From positions 16,526-80,525 of the forward strand of contig CAMNSU010000001.1 in the NCBI GenBank assembly GCA_946555455.1: a stretch of 64,000 nt of DNA, given 5' to 3'. The translations under genes were made by a program, and so were the position numbers. This document shows, in pieces, positions 39,427 to 45,879 of this stretch (positions are counted from its first letter, which is position 1; the number at the start of each line of letters is the position of its first letter). The notes below the pieces were generated by a model. The model saw nothing but the letters and a program-made list of their open reading frames with translations. It ran no database searches and was not told the DNA's origin. The DNA is from an uncultured Clostridia bacterium (GTDB lineage: Bacteria; Bacillota; Clostridia; RUG12999).

Positions 39427-40767
39427 ATGCAGCAGCAATCCTTATTTGAACGGCAGCAGGAAAGCCCTCTTGCCAGCCGTCTGCGTCCCGAAACGCTGGA
39501 CGATTTTGTGGGGCAGCGTCATTTGCTGGGCGAAGGAAAGATTCTCCGACAACTGATTGACCGCGACCAAATTTCTTCCATGGTTTTCTGGGGGCCGCCC
39601 GGCGTGGGCAAAACCACGCTCGCGCGCATTATTGCAGGGCGCACCCGCGCGGATTTTATCAATTTCAGCGCAGTTACCAGCGGTATTAAAGAAATCAAAG
39701 AAGTGATGGGCAAGGCGGAACAACGCCGCGTGATGGGCGACAAAACCATTGTGTTTGTTGACGAAATCCACCGTTTTAATAAAGCGCAGCAGGACGCGTT
39801 TTTGCCGTTTGTGGAAAAAGGCAGCATTATTCTGATTGGCGCAACGACAGAAAATCCGTCGTTTGAAATCAACGCCGCGCTGCTCTCCCGCTGCAAAGTA
39901 TTTGTCTTGCAGGCGCTTTCCACCGCCGACCTCACCGCCTTGCTCCGCCACGCGCTGAAAGACCCGCGCGGGTTTGGCGGACAGCAAATCGACATTGGAG
40001 AAGATATGCTGGAAGCTGTCGCAGGCTTTGCAAACGGCGACGCGCGCGTTGCGCTGGGCACGCTGGAAATGGTGGTACTCAACGGTGAACTAAGCGGCGA
40101 AACTGTCCGCGTGACAAAAGAAACGCTGGAACAGTGTATCAGCCGGAAATCCCTTTTATATGATAAAAACGGTGAGGAACACTATAATCTCATTTCCGCC
40201 CTGCACAAATCCATGCGCAACAGCGACCCTGATGCGGCAGTTTATTGGCTGGCGCGTATGCTGGAGGCAGGCGAAGACCCGCTCTATGTCGCCCGCCGGT
40301 TGGTGCGGTTCGCCAGCGAAGATATCGGCATGGCGGACAGCCGCGCGCTGGAGCTTGCGGTCAGCGCCTATCAGGCATGTCATTTTATCGGTATGCCGGA
40401 GTGCGACGTGACATTGACCCACGCGGTTGTGTATCTGTCCCTTGCGCCCAAGTCCAACGCGCTCTATACTGCCTATGGCAGAGCGAAACGCGACGCCGCG
40501 GAAATGTTGGCGGAACCGGTACCGCTGCACATTCGCAACGCGCCCACTAAACTGATGAAAGAACTGCACTACGGCGAAGGATATCAGTATGCGCATGACG
40601 CCGCGGACAAACTAACGGACATGCAATGCCTGCCCGATACGCTGCTCACCCGCCGCTATTACCGCCCGGGCACGCAGGGGTCGGAGGCAAAAGTGCGCCA
40701 GCGCTTGATACAGATTGAGGATTGGCGCAGCAACCACGGCGCGCCGCCAAAAGAAACAGAACTTTAA
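39427..40767 (+). CDS. rarA: Replication-associated recombination protein A (AAA+ ATPase RarA/MgsA)
   Basis: Walker A GPPGVGKTT, Walker B VFVDEIHRF and the MgsA C-terminal domain. Start ATG 39427 with RBS AAAGGTGGTGG. Promoter TTTACA-17-TATAAT at 39359-39387. Confidence 0.9.
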   Translation: MQQQSLFERQQESPLASRLRPETLDDFVGQRHLLGEGKILRQLIDRDQISSMVFWGPPGVGKTTLARIIAGRTRADFINFSAVTSGIKEIKEVMGKAEQRRVMGDKTIVFVDEIHRFNKAQQDAFLPFVEKGSIILIGATTENPSFEINAALLSRCKVFVLQALSTADLTALLRHALKDPRGFGGQQIDIGEDMLEAVAGFANGDARVALGTLEMVVLNGELSGETVRVTKETLEQCISRKSLLYDKNGEEHYNLISALHKSMRNSDPDAAVYWLARMLEAGEDPLYVARRLVRFASEDIGMADSRALELAVSAYQACHFIGMPECDVTLTHAVVYLSLAPKSNALYTAYGRAKRDAAEMLAEPVPLHIRNAPTKLMKELHYGEGYQYAHDAADKLTDMQCLPDTLLTRRYYRPGTQGSEAKVRQRLIQIEDWRSNHGAPPKETEL

Positions 40768-40780
40768 TGAATATATAAAA

Positions 40781-40815
40781 ATGTCGCTGAGATAAAATTT
40801 ACCCCAGCGACATTT
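40781..40815. terminator. Bidirectional terminator between rarA and the RHH gene pair
   Basis: ATGTCGCTG...CAGCGACAT stem flanked by A- and T-runs. Confidence 0.6.
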
Positions 40816-40980
40816 TTATTTCTCTGATTTTTCTTGGTGAACCAAATACTCTTTTAAAATGATATTCACAAATTGTGACAACGACCTGTCATCTTCCTCC
40901 GCCAGTTTGCTTATCTTCTGCACAACCTCTGGGTCTAATGTTATGCTGATTCGCTGCTTCTTCGATTTCATTATATCCAT
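40816..40980 (-). CDS. Ribbon-helix-helix (CopG/Arc-like) small DNA-binding protein, 54 aa (below ORF-track cutoff)
   Basis: Minus-strand ORF MDIMKSKKQRISITLDPEVVQKISKLAEEDDRSLSQFVNIILKEYLVHQEKSEK. RBS GAAGGGA. Confidence 0.6.
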   Translation of the reverse strand: MDIMKSKKQRISITLDPEVVQKISKLAEEDDRSLSQFVNIILKEYLVHQEKSEK

Positions 40981-40982
40981 TT

Positions 40983-41147
40983 TTATTTCCCTTCTTTCTC
41001 TTTCTTTTTCATATGTTCTACATGTCGCTTTAATACTAAATTGATGTATTGCGAAAAACTTCTGCTATTTTTGTCTGCCAAAATTCTAATATTTTCGTCT
41101 ACCTCTTCGTCAATGGTAATACTCACTTTCTTTTTCAAAGGCTTCAT
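40983..41147 (-). CDS. Ribbon-helix-helix small DNA-binding protein, 54 aa, paralog of the downstream gene; apparently leaderless
   Basis: MKPLKKKVSITIDEEVDENIRILADKNSRSFSQYINLVLKRHVEHMKKKEKEGK. The TATAAT -10 (41153-41158) lies only 5 nt upstream of the ATG. -35 TTGACA is 18 nt further upstream. Confidence 0.55.
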   Translation of the reverse strand: MKPLKKKVSITIDEEVDENIRILADKNSRSFSQYINLVLKRHVEHMKKKEKEGK

Positions 41148-41550
41148 TCTAAATTATACCATTAAATCGTCTTTTGTGTCAATAAGTCATATAGAGTAGT
41201 ATAAAATAATATCATATGGTATATTTATTCACTAAAAAGTGCGCAACTACTTGTTGATTTCCGGACGGAATTTCCCCATGACGCGTATATCCGCGAACTG
41301 GGGGAAGCGGTGGATATTCCCCTATCCACAAAAATAACGAATGCGCGAAAAGCAGCGTAAAGAAAAAAGATACCAGAGAAAAAGTAAGAGGGGGAGGTGC
41401 CGCAGGCGACGGAGGACATTTTTCGTTGGTACTTTTTTCCTTATGCGGTCGTGGAAAACGCCCCGCACCATCATCAACCGGCAGGACGTATCCGAAAACA
41501 GAATGAAAAAAAATGACTGAATTTGTCGGATATTTTTGGCGCTAAAACAC

Positions 41551-41590
41551 TTGACTTTATTTAGTCTCCGTGCTATTATAATGCAGTATC
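41551..41590 (+). promoter_or_regulatory. Strong sigma-A promoter (TTGACT-17-TATTATAAT) followed within about 15 nt by hairpin CCCGCG...CGCGGG plus T-run (41603-41642)
   Basis: Consensus -35 and extended -10 elements. Predicted transcript is about 50 nt unless read through. Confidence 0.55.
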
Positions 41591-41692
41591 AGTCTTTCCC
41601 GCGTTCGCTTTTTTGCGGCGCGGGTTCTCTTTTTTTAACAATAAGCGATATGCTGCTTTGTCCATTCCTTTCTATCTTTTGCGCAAAATCAA

Positions 41693-41748
41693 AAGGGACT
41701 GCAAACGAAACGCCCTAAAAACCGTTTCATTTGCAGTCCCTTTCTATA
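41693..41748. terminator. Long imperfect inverted repeat (GGGACTGCAAAcGAAACG/CGTTTCATTTGCAGTCCC), terminator for the convergent metallophosphoesterase gene
   Basis: 18-bp stem with one mismatch, followed by a T-rich tract on the minus strand. Confidence 0.6.
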
Positions 41749-41800
41749 GGGGAATACCACTTTTCTTGTGAAATCCCAATCTATCCCGCCACTCTGCGTA

Positions 41801-42526
41801 TCACACAGACGGCGGCGTAATATGATACTGGTGATATGTCGCCGCCGCGCCCTCCGCTTGAATTAACGCATAGCAAAACGGCGCTTCACACAAAGCCGCG
41901 CCGGTGAGATACATCACACCGCCGCTCTGCATGGGCGGCATACCGCGGTGCAAATGTCCGCTGACGGACAGCAACACATGGTGTTCTTCATAAAACCGCA
42001 TCATCTGTTCCGCTTCCGCCAAATTATAGGGATATTCGTCCTCAATAGGCGGATAAACAGGGCTGTGCTGAAATACAATGACCGGCTGCTCCGGCGGCAC
42101 TACCGCAAACAGTTCCTCCATTTTTGCCCAGTCGCGCTGTCCCGGAACGCCGGGGCGATAGCAATCTGAGAAGCCCAGCAAATAATAACCGCCTGCCGTG
42201 ACCGGCTGCGTTTCGTCCGCAAACATATTTTGGAACAATTTCTCCGGCGCGTCATGATTGCCGCGCACCACCAAAACCGGTTTGTTCTGCGCTTTCATAA
42301 TTTGTTTCAGTTCCAGCAAATCTTCCTCTGCACCCGCGGCGTTGCCGTTGTCCGTAAGGTCGCCGCCCAGCACAATAACGTCATATGCTTCCGCCGGCAC
42401 TTGTTCAAACACTTGTTTTAACAACGTCGCCGCCAAATGTGTCTGCCTGACGGCAACATTGCAGGTATGCTCCGCCTTGCCGATATAATGCAAATCAGTG
42501 AGAAACAGTATCCGTAATTTTTCCAT
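41801..42526 (-). CDS. Metallophosphoesterase (calcineurin-like), cytoplasmic
   Basis: DxH(x)nGDxxD(x)nGNH[DE] motifs (LTDLHY...GGDLTDNG...RGNHD). Confidence 0.75.
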   Translation of the reverse strand: MEKLRILFLTDLHYIGKAEHTCNVAVRQTHLAATLLKQVFEQVPAEAYDVIVLGGDLTDNGNAAGAEEDLLELKQIMKAQNKPVLVVRGNHDAPEKLFQNMFADETQPVTAGGYYLLGFSDCYRPGVPGQRDWAKMEELFAVVPPEQPVIVFQHSPVYPPIEDEYPYNLAEAEQMMRFYEEHHVLLSVSGHLHRGMPPMQSGGVMYLTGAALCEAPFCYALIQAEGAAATYHQYHITPPSV

Positions 42527-42839
42527 ATTTAGGCTTCATTCCCCTCTGTAAAAACTCATTTTTCTCTGTTTTAGAACCATTTCTGCGAATCGTTTCATTT
42601 TCAGCAGTATCTCATCTTACCGTATTGGCACATAACCGACTTGCTCTATCAAACATTGCCCTTCTTCGGACAATATCCATCATGTTTTGCAGATCTGTTT
42701 GACTCCCCGACCTTTCCGGTCACCGGAACGCGATAATATTCGCCCGTCTGCTGGTTCAGTATTACCCAATGTGCCATATGAATGGTATATTTTCTTTGTT
42801 TCTGCGGCACCTATTTATACTTTTATTCATAAATATATA

Positions 42840-43508
42840 TCACGATATCGCTTTATCGTTGATTGTTTTTAGCGTCCGATATAGTTCCAATCCTTTTGTT
42901 CTGCCGAATATTTTCAGCGCCGTCAGATAGATTCCTCTGCCCGTCACGCCGTTTGCCGAAACAAAATCCATCATCAAATTCAATTTATCCGCATATTCCG
43001 CGCTTCCGCAAACCTGATGCAGTGCACGATAGATTCGTCGTTCCTCCAAAAACCGTTGATAGGTTTCCTCCAAATCCGCCGATTGCAGTTCCTTTTGAAT
43101 GTGGTGTCTTCTCTGTGAATTTTCGTTTAATGCAATAATACTTTCCTCGATATTTTGACGCATAACAACATTCCGACTTGGATTTGCGCATTGACTCCAA
43201 TAATCACAGACAGCCCGAAAATCCTTGTCTTTGCTGACAATGGCAACGTCTCCCTGATATCCGCTGCCATATAATTCTCCAATTTTCCCTGCTATGTAGA
43301 AATCAAGCGCATTTTTTCCGGACCGGACAAGTTTACAGATATCTATTTTACAGCCGGATTCAAATATTTTCCGAAGTTTGCCATATGCAACATTTTTACT
43401 GTTCTGGCTAAAAAAGAAAGTGATATTGTCCTGTGGACACAAATATTCCGCGCCCCTTAATCCGGCGCTGTGTGTATTTTCCAAATCTATCATAAAATAA
43501 ATCATCAT
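42840..43508 (-). CDS. NYN-domain (PIN-like RNase fold) protein with C-terminal helical/LOTUS-like region
   Basis: NYN-type acidic motifs FMIDLEN, GKNALDFYIAG and DVAIVSKDKDF. AT-rich context. Confidence 0.5.
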   Translation of the reverse strand: MMIYFMIDLENTHSAGLRGAEYLCPQDNITFFFSQNSKNVAYGKLRKIFESGCKIDICKLVRSGKNALDFYIAGKIGELYGSGYQGDVAIVSKDKDFRAVCDYWSQCANPSRNVVMRQNIEESIIALNENSQRRHHIQKELQSADLEETYQRFLEERRIYRALHQVCGSAEYADKLNLMMDFVSANGVTGRGIYLTALKIFGRTKGLELYRTLKTINDKAIS

Positions 43509-43756
43509 GCACTTCCCCTTTATGGAAAAATTTATGTCGTCTATCCTATAACAGTCAGTCTCTCTTCTTTCATGGAACAGCAGAAAATGAATCCATTTAT
43601 AAAAACACTGTTTACATTACCCATCTCGCTGTACACTTTACAGTTGCAGTATATCCTATCTTTAAACTGCTACATTTTTATTGTACATCAGTCCATCAGC
43701 AATGTCAACAGAATTTTATTTTAAACGCATACATGCAACACATTTCATACAAACGA

Positions 43757-43790
43757 AAAAATCCTATCTTACGACAGGATTTTTTTGTTT
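43757..43790. terminator. Bidirectional intrinsic terminator (AAAAAATCCTaTCttacgaCaGGATTTTTTTG)
   Basis: Stem flanked by A- and T-runs. Ends the DcdV-like/zinc-ribbon transcript. Confidence 0.65.
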
Positions 43791-43970
43791 GGGAAAGCCG
43801 AATGGTTTAGATGCCATTGGTTTTCATAAGTTATCTTCTTTGCTGAAAAATATTTTTTAAACAGTAAAACATCAATATTAAATTTATGTGTTATAATGTT
43901 CATATAATAAACAAAATTCAGTTTTTTTATATTTCATTGTTCTCAAATCCCTATAATTTTTATTTAACGA

Positions 43971-44153
43971 TTACACTTTACTTAAAGCATATTTCTTTTG
44001 ATTCGTAATGTCTTTTTTCTCAAAACATGAATATTTTTTAGAATCTTTTCTGGATATCATTTCACTTACCCAAGAACATTTTGTACATGTTACTCTTCCA
44101 TAATACGCATTGTACTCTGCAATGCTACCACATCTTTGACAAATTGTACACAT
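43971..44153 (-). CDS. 60-aa Cys4 zinc-ribbon protein, translationally coupled to the upstream DcdV-like gene
   Basis: CTICQRC...CTKC motif. RBS AAAGGAG 8 nt upstream of ATG 44153. 24-nt gap to the previous stop. Confidence 0.55.
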   Translation of the reverse strand: MCTICQRCGSIAEYNAYYGRVTCTKCSWVSEMISRKDSKKYSCFEKKDITNQKKYALSKV

Positions 44154-44177
44154 AATAATTACTCCTTTAAATTATAA

Positions 44178-45338
44178 TCATGCTTCATATTTGAAAAACT
44201 TAAAAAACGCTCTAAAGGTAACGCCTTCAAATGACTCCGTTTCAACTCCGCCTTTTTTTAAAATCTCTTTTGCTTCCTCAACGGGATATGGTTCAAAATA
44301 AACCACCTTTTTAATTCCTGCTTGAACAATCTTGTTTGCACATAGATTACATGGATATGTAGTAACATATATGGTAGAATCTGTTAAATCCACTCCTCTG
44401 CCCACCAAGTTCATGATTGCATTTTCCTCACCATGTAATGCTCTACATTTCTCTAATAATTTAATTTTCCCCTTAACCAGTTCTACAGCAGTATCTTCAC
44501 TTTCCAGTTGGAGTTCTCCGCACAATTCTTTTGCTAATCTTTCTCGTTCAATATCCCTGTAGCACTCACCTTTCATCGTTATGCATTCTTGGAGGGTTCG
44601 GGGAACGCCATTAAATCCAGAACTTATAATTCGATCATACTTATCAGCTATCACTGCCCCAACTTTTCTTTTAATACACTTAGAACGTCTGCCGCTTGTA
44701 TATGCCGCCGCCATCAATGTCTCCACCAAGGTTGGATTTGAGTTTATCGGTTCATCTAAAGATTTTAAATATGCCGTTATTTTAGAGTCCATTTCTTTAT
44801 ACGCTTCATTTGGATTTCCCGGATTAATCTCTTTATTATTAGATAATATTAAATCAGATTCAAAAAAACAATCTGAAATTTTTTGCCCATATTTAGGTTC
44901 TGTCTTCCCTTGATCTTTCCTTTCGTCAGCATCAAACAAATCCTTTGAGCCATTATATGTTTCTCTTACTCTTCCCCATCTAACATCATATTCCGCAAAA
45001 ATTCCTATTAAGATAAATTCGGTGTGGTTTTCTCTAAAATAATTTATCTCTGCCGGATTTCGTATACTTTCAATCACAAAGTTACTTTGAGAATCTTTAG
45101 CTATAATTTTATCAACTTCTTTAGCTAATATACTGGGATCATCCTCTCTTAACCTATTTCCAAACTCTTGCAGTGCTTTACGATTAGGAGCGTCTTCTCC
45201 ATGTTTTTCTTTATATTTTTCTCTTAAAAATTTAGATAATGAACAACATTCATACCCCTTGTTTTTAAAAAAATGCTCCGCTAAAAAACTGACCCCGCTG
45301 CCAAAAGCACCTGTTAAACCAATGATTTTCCGTCCCAT
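44178..45338 (-). CDS. P-loop kinase-like domain fused to dCMP/dCTP deaminase domain (DcdV / dCTP-deaminase defence-like)
   Basis: N-terminal IIGLTGAFGSGVS, a CoaE-like P-loop with Lys replaced by Val. C-terminal CMP/dCMP deaminase motifs VGAVIA..GFNGVP, HGEENAI and PCNLCA. Promoter TTGAAA-17-TAAAAT and RBS AAGGGTGGTGA upstream. Confidence 0.65.
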   Translation of the reverse strand: MGRKIIGLTGAFGSGVSFLAEHFFKNKGYECCSLSKFLREKYKEKHGEDAPNRKALQEFGNRLREDDPSILAKEVDKIIAKDSQSNFVIESIRNPAEINYFRENHTEFILIGIFAEYDVRWGRVRETYNGSKDLFDADERKDQGKTEPKYGQKISDCFFESDLILSNNKEINPGNPNEAYKEMDSKITAYLKSLDEPINSNPTLVETLMAAAYTSGRRSKCIKRKVGAVIADKYDRIISSGFNGVPRTLQECITMKGECYRDIERERLAKELCGELQLESEDTAVELVKGKIKLLEKCRALHGEENAIMNLVGRGVDLTDSTIYVTTYPCNLCANKIVQAGIKKVVYFEPYPVEEAKEILKKGGVETESFEGVTFRAFFKFFKYEA

Positions 45339-45627
45339 GTATATTTCACCACCCTTGTTGCATAAATTTTATCATAATCGGTAATATTTTTCAATAGAAA
45401 ATTAATAATTTATAATATTTATACAATAAATTTCTAAATATACTTAGCAAACTTTAATTTATATTATATTTATTATTCAATTTTTTAAACATCACTATTA
45501 TGTTGTTTTAATTCTCCTATTCTCCTTGTCCATCTTCATTCCGTTTGTTAAATCTGTATATTCTAATTTGCATATAAAAAGCGACAAACATCATTATAAG
45601 CATGTTATAAATAACGTTTGTCGCTTT

Positions 45628-45704
45628 TGGTGGATCCTCGGGGACTCGAACCCTGGACCGTCCGGTTATGAGCCGGATGCTCTAACCAACTGAGCTAAGG
45701 ATCC
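45628..45704 (-). tRNA. tRNA-Met (CAT anticodon; Ile2/lysidine type not excluded)
   Basis: Minus-strand read GGATCCTTAGCTCAGTTGGTTAGAGCATCCGGCTCATAACCGGACGGTCCAGGGTTCGAGTCCCCGAGGATCCACCA folds as a cloverleaf with a 7-bp acceptor stem, CAT anticodon and encoded CCA. A terminator-like hairpin GCGACAAAC...GTTTGTCGC lies downstream at 45590-45627. Confidence 0.85.
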
Positions 45705-45879
45705 CTATTCAATTTTTACCTATCTATTATACCAGTTCCGGCAGCATTTGTCAATGTTTTTTTGGAAGATTCCCATATGTAGGCAAAGAAATGGGACAGG
45801 CAAACAAAAGTCGAATCTCCTGATTCACAAAAAATGGGGTATACCAATTCCGTATACCCCATGCGTATTTACCAAAACA

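Follow-up and report, generated by a model that had tools for sequence, protein, structure and literature searches.

The gene at 44178..45338 (minus strand) of a 64,000-nucleotide (nt) stretch of DNA from an uncultured Clostridia bacterium (contig CAMNSU010000001.1 of assembly GCA_946555455.1, positions 16,526 to 80,525; hereafter the window) raises the question of whether the kinase-like/dCMP-deaminase fusion which it encodes is homologous to the anti-phage dCTP deaminase and AvcD (DcdV) enzymes and, if so, what keeps such an enzyme inactive in its host. The dCTP deaminase of E. coli and the DcdV/AvcD of V. cholerae convert dCTP/dCMP into dU nucleotides upon infection-induced shutoff of host transcription, starving phage DNA synthesis (10.1101/2021.04.26.441389; 10.1101/2021.03.31.437871; PMC10511110). 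Nucleotide-depletion defence is already well established, and one more homologue, flagged by a PADLOC scan, is routine. What is new here is that the lysine-less loop of the N-terminal domain is normal for the family, that an RNA antitoxin is not supported at the locus, and that a small zinc-ribbon gene directly downstream is conserved across phyla, suggesting that this variant of the system is regulated by a protein. We consider it reasonably probable that the two genes form a mobile cassette for deoxycytidine (dC)-nucleotide-depletion defence regulated by protein rather than RNA.

The open reading frame (ORF) was recovered exactly as an earlier note, made from the letters alone, had placed it, with an ATG start and a product of 386 amino acids (aa). 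The same note had divided the protein into a CoaE/uridine-kinase-like P-loop half and a dCMP-deaminase half, and on this division Pfam, AlphaFold and fold matches agree. The N-terminal kinase-like domain covers about residues 1-195 (44754..45338, minus strand, as are all the genes and signals of the window located below), with AAA_18 matched at residues 6-131 (1.7e-7), while the zinc-dependent dCMP-deaminase domain occupies about residues 200-386 (44181..44741), with dCMP_cyt_deam_1 (PF00383) at 206-348 (7e-21). The AlphaFold model, built on a 36-sequence alignment, reached a predicted local distance difference test (pLDDT) score of 90.9 and a predicted template modelling score (pTM) of 0.87. 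The fold of the N-terminal half is closest to the adenylate-kinase-related structure 3lw7 (template modelling score, TM, 0.84), followed by dephospho-CoA kinases and UMP/CMP kinases, and that of the C-terminal half to the dCMP deaminases of S. mutans (2hvw, TM 0.84), T4 (1vq2, Cd), human (2w4l, DCTD) and PBCV-1 (7fh4), the last of which is a bifunctional dCMP/dCTP enzyme. ComEB, T4 Cd, human DCTD and the PBCV-1 bi-DCD share the fold and catalytic site of the C-terminal half, but they consist of that one domain, in about 140-190 aa, and have no P-loop domain. Searches of solved structures by sequence and by fold returned no entry that spans both domains and no AvcD structure.

The zinc ligands named in the earlier note are in place, namely the catalytic H302/E304 of the HGEENAI motif (44424..44435) and P329-C330..C333 of the PCNLCA motif (44340..44354), and all five residues, H302, E304, P329, C330 and C333, are constant throughout the 36-sequence alignment (A1), as are G7, G10, F12, G13 and G15 of the P-loop. 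The Cys-containing insertion of about 50 residues reported there is real as well: it is an expanded helical segment of 52 residues (248-299; 44442..44597) between GFNGVPR and ALHGEE, carrying C252, C259, C274 and C298. The human enzyme has a segment about 30 residues shorter, but that of T4 Cd is comparably long and that of the Klebsiella anti-phage enzyme longer still, so that the expansion is a trait of the lineage and not a peculiarity of the 386-aa protein. The non-catalytic C221, C252, C259 and C298 (window 44442-44676) are likewise invariant in the alignment and may form a second, structural metal site; the first three are common to the Klebsiella enzyme, C298 is not.

The placement in the defence family rests on matches that run the length of the protein. 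The PADLOC dCTP-deaminase model PDLC02373 aligns residues 5-383 with profile positions 156-520 of 630 (319 bits, E=1.8e-95), the NCBIfam anti-phage dCTP deaminase equivalog NF041025 is covered from position 3 to 432 of 437 (233 bits), and a Klebsiella plasmid protein named by PGAP as an anti-phage dCTP deaminase is 28% identical over residues 5-382 (E=4e-38). Together these make the 386-aa protein a true full-length homologue of validated defence enzymes, and the relationship to DcdV and the dCTP deaminases which had been proposed for it stands. Tal and colleagues defined the family by an N-terminal kinase-like and a C-terminal deaminase domain in a protein of more than 350 aa (10.1101/2021.04.26.441389). 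Here, kinase-like and cytidine/dCMP deaminase domains are joined in one protein of 386 aa, with the zinc-site residues (H302, E304, C330, C333) and the loop glycines (G7, G10, G13, G15) intact. With the Tal-type enzymes it shares the order of P-loop and zinc-dependent deaminase domains, the HxE and PCxxC motifs, a glycine loop without the Walker A lysine, the expanded Cys-containing segment, a patchy distribution, a mobile gene and end-to-end homology; it differs from them in length (386 aa against 499-576 aa), being about 35 residues shorter than the Klebsiella homologue at the N-terminus and about 100 at the C-terminus. With AvcID, also known as DcdV-DifV, the type III system of Vibrio cholerae, it shares the toxin family, a homology to AvcD/DcdV that is based on domain architecture and family hidden Markov models, not on a direct alignment with DcdV.

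Relatives are numerous, with 1553 homologues at E<=1e-5 in a database clustered at 90%, the best 120 of which are nearly all 381-420 aa long and come from metagenome-assembled genomes of Oscillospiraceae/Clostridia. At 50% clustering, 259 representatives were found at E<=1e-30, a figure that describes the whole fusion family and not this clade alone. Members of the clade (P0010, P0085, P0119) score 236-270 bits on NF041025, against 478 and 499 bits for the Klebsiella and E. coli plasmid enzymes. Judged by its sequence, the 386-aa protein is a member of a separate, shorter subfamily of the defence deaminases. The housekeeping alternative, ComEB, had been set aside in the earlier note and is not what was found: on the ComEB model TIGR02571 the deaminase half reaches only 65 bits where 219 are required, the 386-aa protein combines two domains, and its flanks are not conserved among relatives. 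The defence-deaminase reading of 44178..45338 is, in our judgement, quite likely.

The glycine-rich loop GLTGAFGSGVS (residues 7-17; 45288..45320) lacks the Walker A lysine, which the earlier note had described as replaced by valine. The residue was read correctly, and valine at this position is found in the 386-aa protein alone among the 120 best homologues; the loss itself is not peculiar. The lysine (GSGKT) is absent from about 112 of 113 homologues, the one carrier being P0081, and the others have T, C, S or A, so that the loop consensus of the 120 best reads G[LF]TG[AS]FG[SC]G[T/C/S/A][ST]; the Klebsiella anti-phage enzyme has Ile there (GAVGSGIK). On this comparison, the missing lysine is a family-wide trait and not a defect of a single copy, and the N-terminal domain is, as had been suspected, no conventional intact kinase. 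The founding members of the family need the loop nonetheless: the Walker A mutant of DcdV was S52K, which abolished function (10.1101/2021.03.31.437871), and defence by the E. coli AW1.7 enzyme was lost in G29A/C30A (loop) as well as in C370A/C401A (zinc site) (Tal et al., 10.1101/2021.04.26.441389). The glycine-rich loop is thus required although the catalytic lysine of kinases is absent, and the domain presumably binds nucleotide, for substrate capture or regulation, instead of transferring phosphate.

In the DcdV/AvcID systems the antitoxin is a small RNA (sRNA) of 152-174 nt whose gene directly precedes that of the enzyme on the same strand and is transcribed together with it (10.1101/2021.03.31.437871). 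Such an arrangement is not supported here. A promoter predicted by consensus scan (TTGAAA, 17-nt spacer, TAAAAT, with TG before the -10; 45366..45394) lies about 30 nt 5' of the start codon, leaving a leader of only about 25-30 nt, and together with an intrinsic terminator (43756..43785; 13-bp stem followed by a T run) it encloses the deaminase and the zinc-ribbon gene in one unit running from about 45394 to 43756. Conservation upstream with the two close relatives L002 (85% identical) and L003 (80%) is confined to the promoter and ribosome-binding-site block, the predicted folding of the 237 nt upstream is no more stable than that of shuffled sequences (z=-0.18), and Rfam has no match upstream of the deaminase. 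On the other side, the 185-nt 3' region up to the terminator is not conserved among the relatives compared, and its fold signal (z=-3.86) arises because the terminator hairpin lies within it. An AvcI-like sRNA, whether upstream or 3', was therefore rejected. The likeness to DcdV which had been noted holds for the protein family, but not for the AvcI/DifV sRNA which defines the DcdV (AvcID) system. A wholly different regulatory RNA at the deaminase locus stays conceivable, given that AvcI sequences are known to be poorly conserved.

Of the five DcdV mutations that confer insensitivity to DifV, two (K511E, Q514R) affect C-terminal positions of that 532-aa protein, and the 386-aa protein stops about 100 residues short of where the Klebsiella homologue does, so that, by analogy, part of the RNA-responsive surface may be missing from it. 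The proteobacterial plasmid loci have a different upstream region, with an ORF of about 60 codons before the deaminase at the difV position of the DcdV paper. The one examined in detail (L092, NZ_CP024195.1) is a 4.6-kb ColRNAI-type plasmid of K. pneumoniae whose cargo beyond replication, Rop and regulator genes is a 566-aa anti-phage dCTP deaminase only, immediately preceded by the 60-codon ORF, which thus takes the place of avcI. About 20 similar Klebsiella pneumoniae plasmids of 4.6-4.7 kb (MOB-suite ColRNAI replicon cluster) carry the same deaminase match.

The conserved partner at the clostridial locus is a protein encoded 3' of the enzyme. The gene at 43971..44153 specifies a 60-aa zinc-ribbon protein (C2/C5...C23/C26) with a tail ending KKYALSKV, and its ribosome-binding site AAAGGAG (44162..44168) can be read inside the 24-nt gap past the deaminase stop. 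Linkage was assessed in 80 related loci drawn from data with one genome per species, 75 of them with an intact deaminase. In 45 of the 75 the ORF that comes next after the deaminase is a zinc-ribbon homologue (CxxC...CxxC), and at identities of at least 40% all but one of the assessable loci have it (42 of 43), L008 being the clear exception and L045 not assessable because its contig ends there. The deaminase stop and zinc-ribbon start overlap by 1-4 nt, often by 4 nt, in 23 of the 45 loci, and most of the other gaps are below 40 nt. Furthermore, the zinc-ribbon ORF is under purifying selection (ratio of non-synonymous to synonymous change, pN/pS, 0.08-0.5 in seven loci), and the divergence of its product tracks that of the deaminase (Mantel r=0.76, reached by 0 of 2000 permutations). 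The partner was found in Clostridia, Bacteroidota, Planctomycetota, archaea and phage contigs. On these sequence comparisons, the zinc-ribbon gene is a conserved operon partner of the deaminase; the earlier note was right that it is there, together with NYN and ribbon-helix-helix (RHH) genes, but had taken it for a mere island neighbour. Such a downstream partner, conserved here, further distinguishes the locus from the Tal-type systems, with their upstream region of about 60 codons in proteobacteria.

The partner has a recognisable consensus, C-P-x-C-G...[YF]-[DN]-x-Y-[FY]...C-x2-C-x-W, followed by a variable linker and a C-terminus that is commonly basic and alternating-hydrophobic (e.g. KKYALSKV, KKAVAVK). 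AlphaFold models a beta-hairpin core (pLDDT 69-82) and predicts the tail, residues 44-60, to be disordered (below 50). The protein belongs to no Pfam or PADLOC family, its zinc-ribbon matches there being sub-threshold only, and a large-database search with it returned just 4 close matches; public gene calls hold it as a nameless 60-aa protein on contigs of the deaminase clusters. No description of a zinc-ribbon partner of such deaminases was found in the literature searched, the coverage of which was incomplete, so that this is absence of evidence only.

The partner varies along the family. In seven Planctomycetota loci (L020, L022, L026, L033, L038, L040, L041) the zinc ribbon forms the N-terminus of a protein of about 190 aa, whose start overlaps the deaminase stop by 4 nt and whose middle gives weak, sub-threshold DUF2283 matches (E=0.007-0.05). 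A distant clade of deaminases (L052-L081; 31-36% identity, about 400-460 aa) from Planctomycetota, Desulfobacterota, Aminicenantes and Lentisphaerota is followed by an ORF of 50-66 aa with no CxxC (e.g. L070 7254-7409, L068, L074, L058, L064, L069); in about 11-13 of 16 cases these small ORFs end in a recurring peptide (LLKGRPFHIKYY, LTKNMPFTIKAY, ILKNRPISIKFI, ILQGRTIRLNVF), and they may represent a second small-partner family. The deaminase frame is interrupted in 5 of the 80 related loci (L023, L027, L048, L050, L063), for which a pseudogene, a frameshift in sequencing or a split gene could account; in L023 and L027 the break follows some 145 codons, and a 228-aa ORF starting near SDLILSNN continues the frame.

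The setting of the cassette suggests mobility. The AT-rich islet beside a tRNA-Met described in the earlier note was confirmed: guanine-cytosine (GC) content falls to 0.24-0.40 across 43450-45700, an islet of about 33%, against about 0.50 in the flanks, and the tRNA-Met(CAT) gene (45628..45704), with its own terminator hairpin at about 45578-45627, marks the upstream edge of the islet and lies outside the system. A search of 185,579 species genomes (one genome per species) yielded 123 confirmed relatives, scattered over Clostridia, Bacteroidota, Planctomycetota, Acidobacteriota, Dehalococcoidia and several archaea. A comparison of synteny in close relatives had been named beforehand as a check, since defence genes are patchy, and flanks proved to differ even among relatives 80-85% identical. 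Different tRNAs lie nearby in 13 of the 20 loci examined, with different genes on either side. Among the 100 nearest ORFs from 45 related loci with the zinc-ribbon partner, no family occurs more than 3 times, and the commonest are integrases and transposases. No integrase and no direct repeat of the tRNA-Met 3' end was found within 40500-45800, and an integrase-type insertion at the tRNA-Met was rejected, as the islet has neither an integrase nor an attachment (att)-like repeat.

Two IMG/VR viral contigs carry relatives as well. In one of them (L087 3772-9279; UViG_3300045988_184641) the deaminase/zinc-ribbon pair sits between the genes for the terminase large subunit and an SPP1-type portal, a moron-like position in the packaging module. 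The zinc-ribbon genes of L021 and L029 are nearly identical to that of L087, and SPP1_portal accounts for 2 of the 100 neighbour ORFs, a list that includes ORFs of L021 and L029; from this, the cassette probably has the same terminase/portal arrangement in these two loci.

The proposed mechanism follows from the homology and the pairing. The cassette, consisting of promoter, deaminase, zinc-ribbon gene and terminator, was probably acquired horizontally, and the deaminase would deplete dC nucleotides during infection as its proteobacterial homologues do, with its N-terminal domain binding nucleotide for substrate capture or regulation. The zinc-ribbon protein would take the role of AvcI, binding the deaminase and keeping it inactive, and would be lost or displaced once infection shuts off host transcription or translation, releasing the enzyme. 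In this way a protein would do in the cassette (type II-like) what an RNA does in the type III AvcID. Both would work along the same lines, with an enzyme made in advance, held by a labile partner and freed when host expression stops; the defining 5' sRNA of AvcID is what differs, being unsupported here. AvcID is not activated by translation inhibitors (PMC10511110); a system with a protein regulator, unlike AvcID, should respond to them.

In type II toxin-antitoxin pairs such as MqsR-MqsA, in which the toxin gene comes first, the antitoxin binds the toxin via a zinc-binding domain. The locus resembles this arrangement in that the gene for the enzyme (or toxin) is followed in the operon by that for a small zinc-binding protein with a flexible, potentially labile part, as predicted here. 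It differs in that the zinc-ribbon protein has no helix-turn-helix DNA-binding domain and in that neutralisation is hypothetical; no sequence similarity was detected. Of the features of type II systems, a two-gene operon and conserved pairing are observed; toxicity of the enzyme and its binding and neutralisation by the small protein belong to the proposal. That the zinc-ribbon protein acts as a specific inhibitor of the deaminase is consequently a tentative proposal, to which we would give somewhat less than an even chance; otherwise it may serve as a stoichiometric subunit, activating or sensing, or as an autoregulator.

Several observations weigh against the reading of the locus as a protein-regulated defence cassette. 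The role assigned to the zinc-ribbon protein is drawn from gene context only, and a coupled downstream gene gives at most a 1:1 product, a ratio no less suited to a stoichiometric subunit or sensor than to an antitoxin in excess. In Planctomycetota the partner is a protein of 190 aa with further domains. The short clade (about 386 aa) is known from its sequences, and the score on NF041025 stays below the equivalog cutoff of 400 bits. The neighbour survey turned up few defence genes (HmaC, type IIG restriction-modification/DrmMI, AbiU, DUF499) and many housekeeping ones; of a Tal-type family one would expect enrichment beside known defence systems, with a defence score above 0.33. Finally, presence or absence of the cassette within the species is not callable from same-species contigs. 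The short-read (Logan) contigs concerned (L082-L086, L001) all end inside the tRNA-Met gene, a repeat artefact suggesting that this tRNA is multi-copy. An exact-pattern metagenome scan gave no match, and the metagenome relatives of OadB (at most 79% identical, with no shared synteny) carry the cassette in 0 of 35 cases, which is uninformative on its presence.

The near-universal linkage across phyla, the stop/start overlaps and the co-divergence are hard to square with a passenger, and this bears on the view that the locus is a single-gene dCTP-deaminase defence, acting alone or under an unrecognised RNA, with the zinc-ribbon gene as a co-transcribed passenger or a transcriptional autoregulator that does not act on the enzyme directly. 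The PADLOC system does consist of one gene, strongly matched by the deaminase, a single cloned gene gave defence in the experiments of Tal and colleagues (10.1101/2021.04.26.441389), and the partner has neither a Pfam nor a PADLOC family; neither flank has a conserved or structured RNA. On balance we find it unlikely.

More remote is a metabolic role, with the protein a dCMP/dCTP deaminase supplying dUMP/dTTP, its nucleotide-binding domain a regulatory sensor of dCTP/dTTP, and the zinc-ribbon protein a small accessory subunit. Classical dCMP deaminases sense dCTP/dTTP allosterically, among solved structures the nearest folds belong to dCMP deaminases of housekeeping or viral kind, housekeeping genes adjoin the deaminase in many related loci, and 233 bits falls short of what the NCBIfam equivalog asks for. 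A gene confined to a tiny, scattered share of genomes, foreign to its host in GC and without kept synteny, is not what this role would lead one to expect, and neither is full-length homology to validated defence enzymes combined with a ComEB score far below the cutoff (65 bits against 219); we regard it as improbable. A similarly slim chance is given to a module that serves the element carrying it, be it superinfection exclusion by a prophage, an addiction (toxin-antitoxin) cassette or a leftover gene of phage nucleotide metabolism. The position between terminase and portal in the viral contig L087, the two portal genes among the 100 neighbours, the prominence of integrases and transposases and the match of PHROGs dCMP-deaminase families to the C-terminal half would suit it, but no prophage genes, integrase or att repeats surround the islet in the window. 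Exclusion of other phages by a prophage is, moreover, still phage defence, so that this explanation overlaps with that of a protein-regulated defence cassette.

The other genes around the islet appear unconnected with the cassette. The PIN7-domain (NYN-like) gene at 42840..43508, whose 222-aa product has no PADLOC, NCBIfam or PHROGs match, is served by a separate, near-consensus promoter (43708-43680) past the terminator, and it is found together with the downstream metallophosphoesterase gene on other contigs of the same species. The pair of RHH genes (40816..41147) encodes tandem 54-aa CopG-like proteins in a low-GC islet of its own (0.33), with a 25-nt direct repeat at the 3' ends of both ORFs, around the stop codons. 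Their arrangement suggests a duplicated antitoxin or regulator gene; no toxin gene lies next to them. The PIN7 and RHH genes do not recur in related loci and thus fall outside the system, and they and the metallophosphoesterase were rejected as parts of it, being absent from the recurrent neighbour families. Further away, the region at about 10000-35000 of the window has a GC of 0.41-0.50, against 0.51-0.58 in the first 10 kb, with genes nearly all on the minus strand; a spot check of seven of its large ORFs against PHROGs gave no phage structural matches, and a prophage is not evident there by that check.

How such deaminases are silenced has, to our knowledge, been answered only for proteobacteria, with the AvcI sRNA. 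For the many non-proteobacterial homologues the conserved zinc-ribbon partner is a candidate alternative regulator, and its linkage suggests that a component is overlooked where the 'dCTP deaminase' system is defined by one gene. A bolder idea, which we rate below the inhibitor proposal, is that the antitoxin switched chemical class within one toxin family, from an upstream sRNA in proteobacteria to a downstream zinc-ribbon protein in the widespread clade of Clostridia, Bacteroidota, Planctomycetota, archaea and phages, where it would restrain or arm the enzyme by docking of its disordered tail, with a third kind of small protein, bearing a conserved C-terminal peptide, in the more distant clade. 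If true, the system would react when translation is shut off and not only when transcription is, and it would constitute a new two-gene type of defence system, offering a natural case for how toxin families swap RNA and protein antitoxins.

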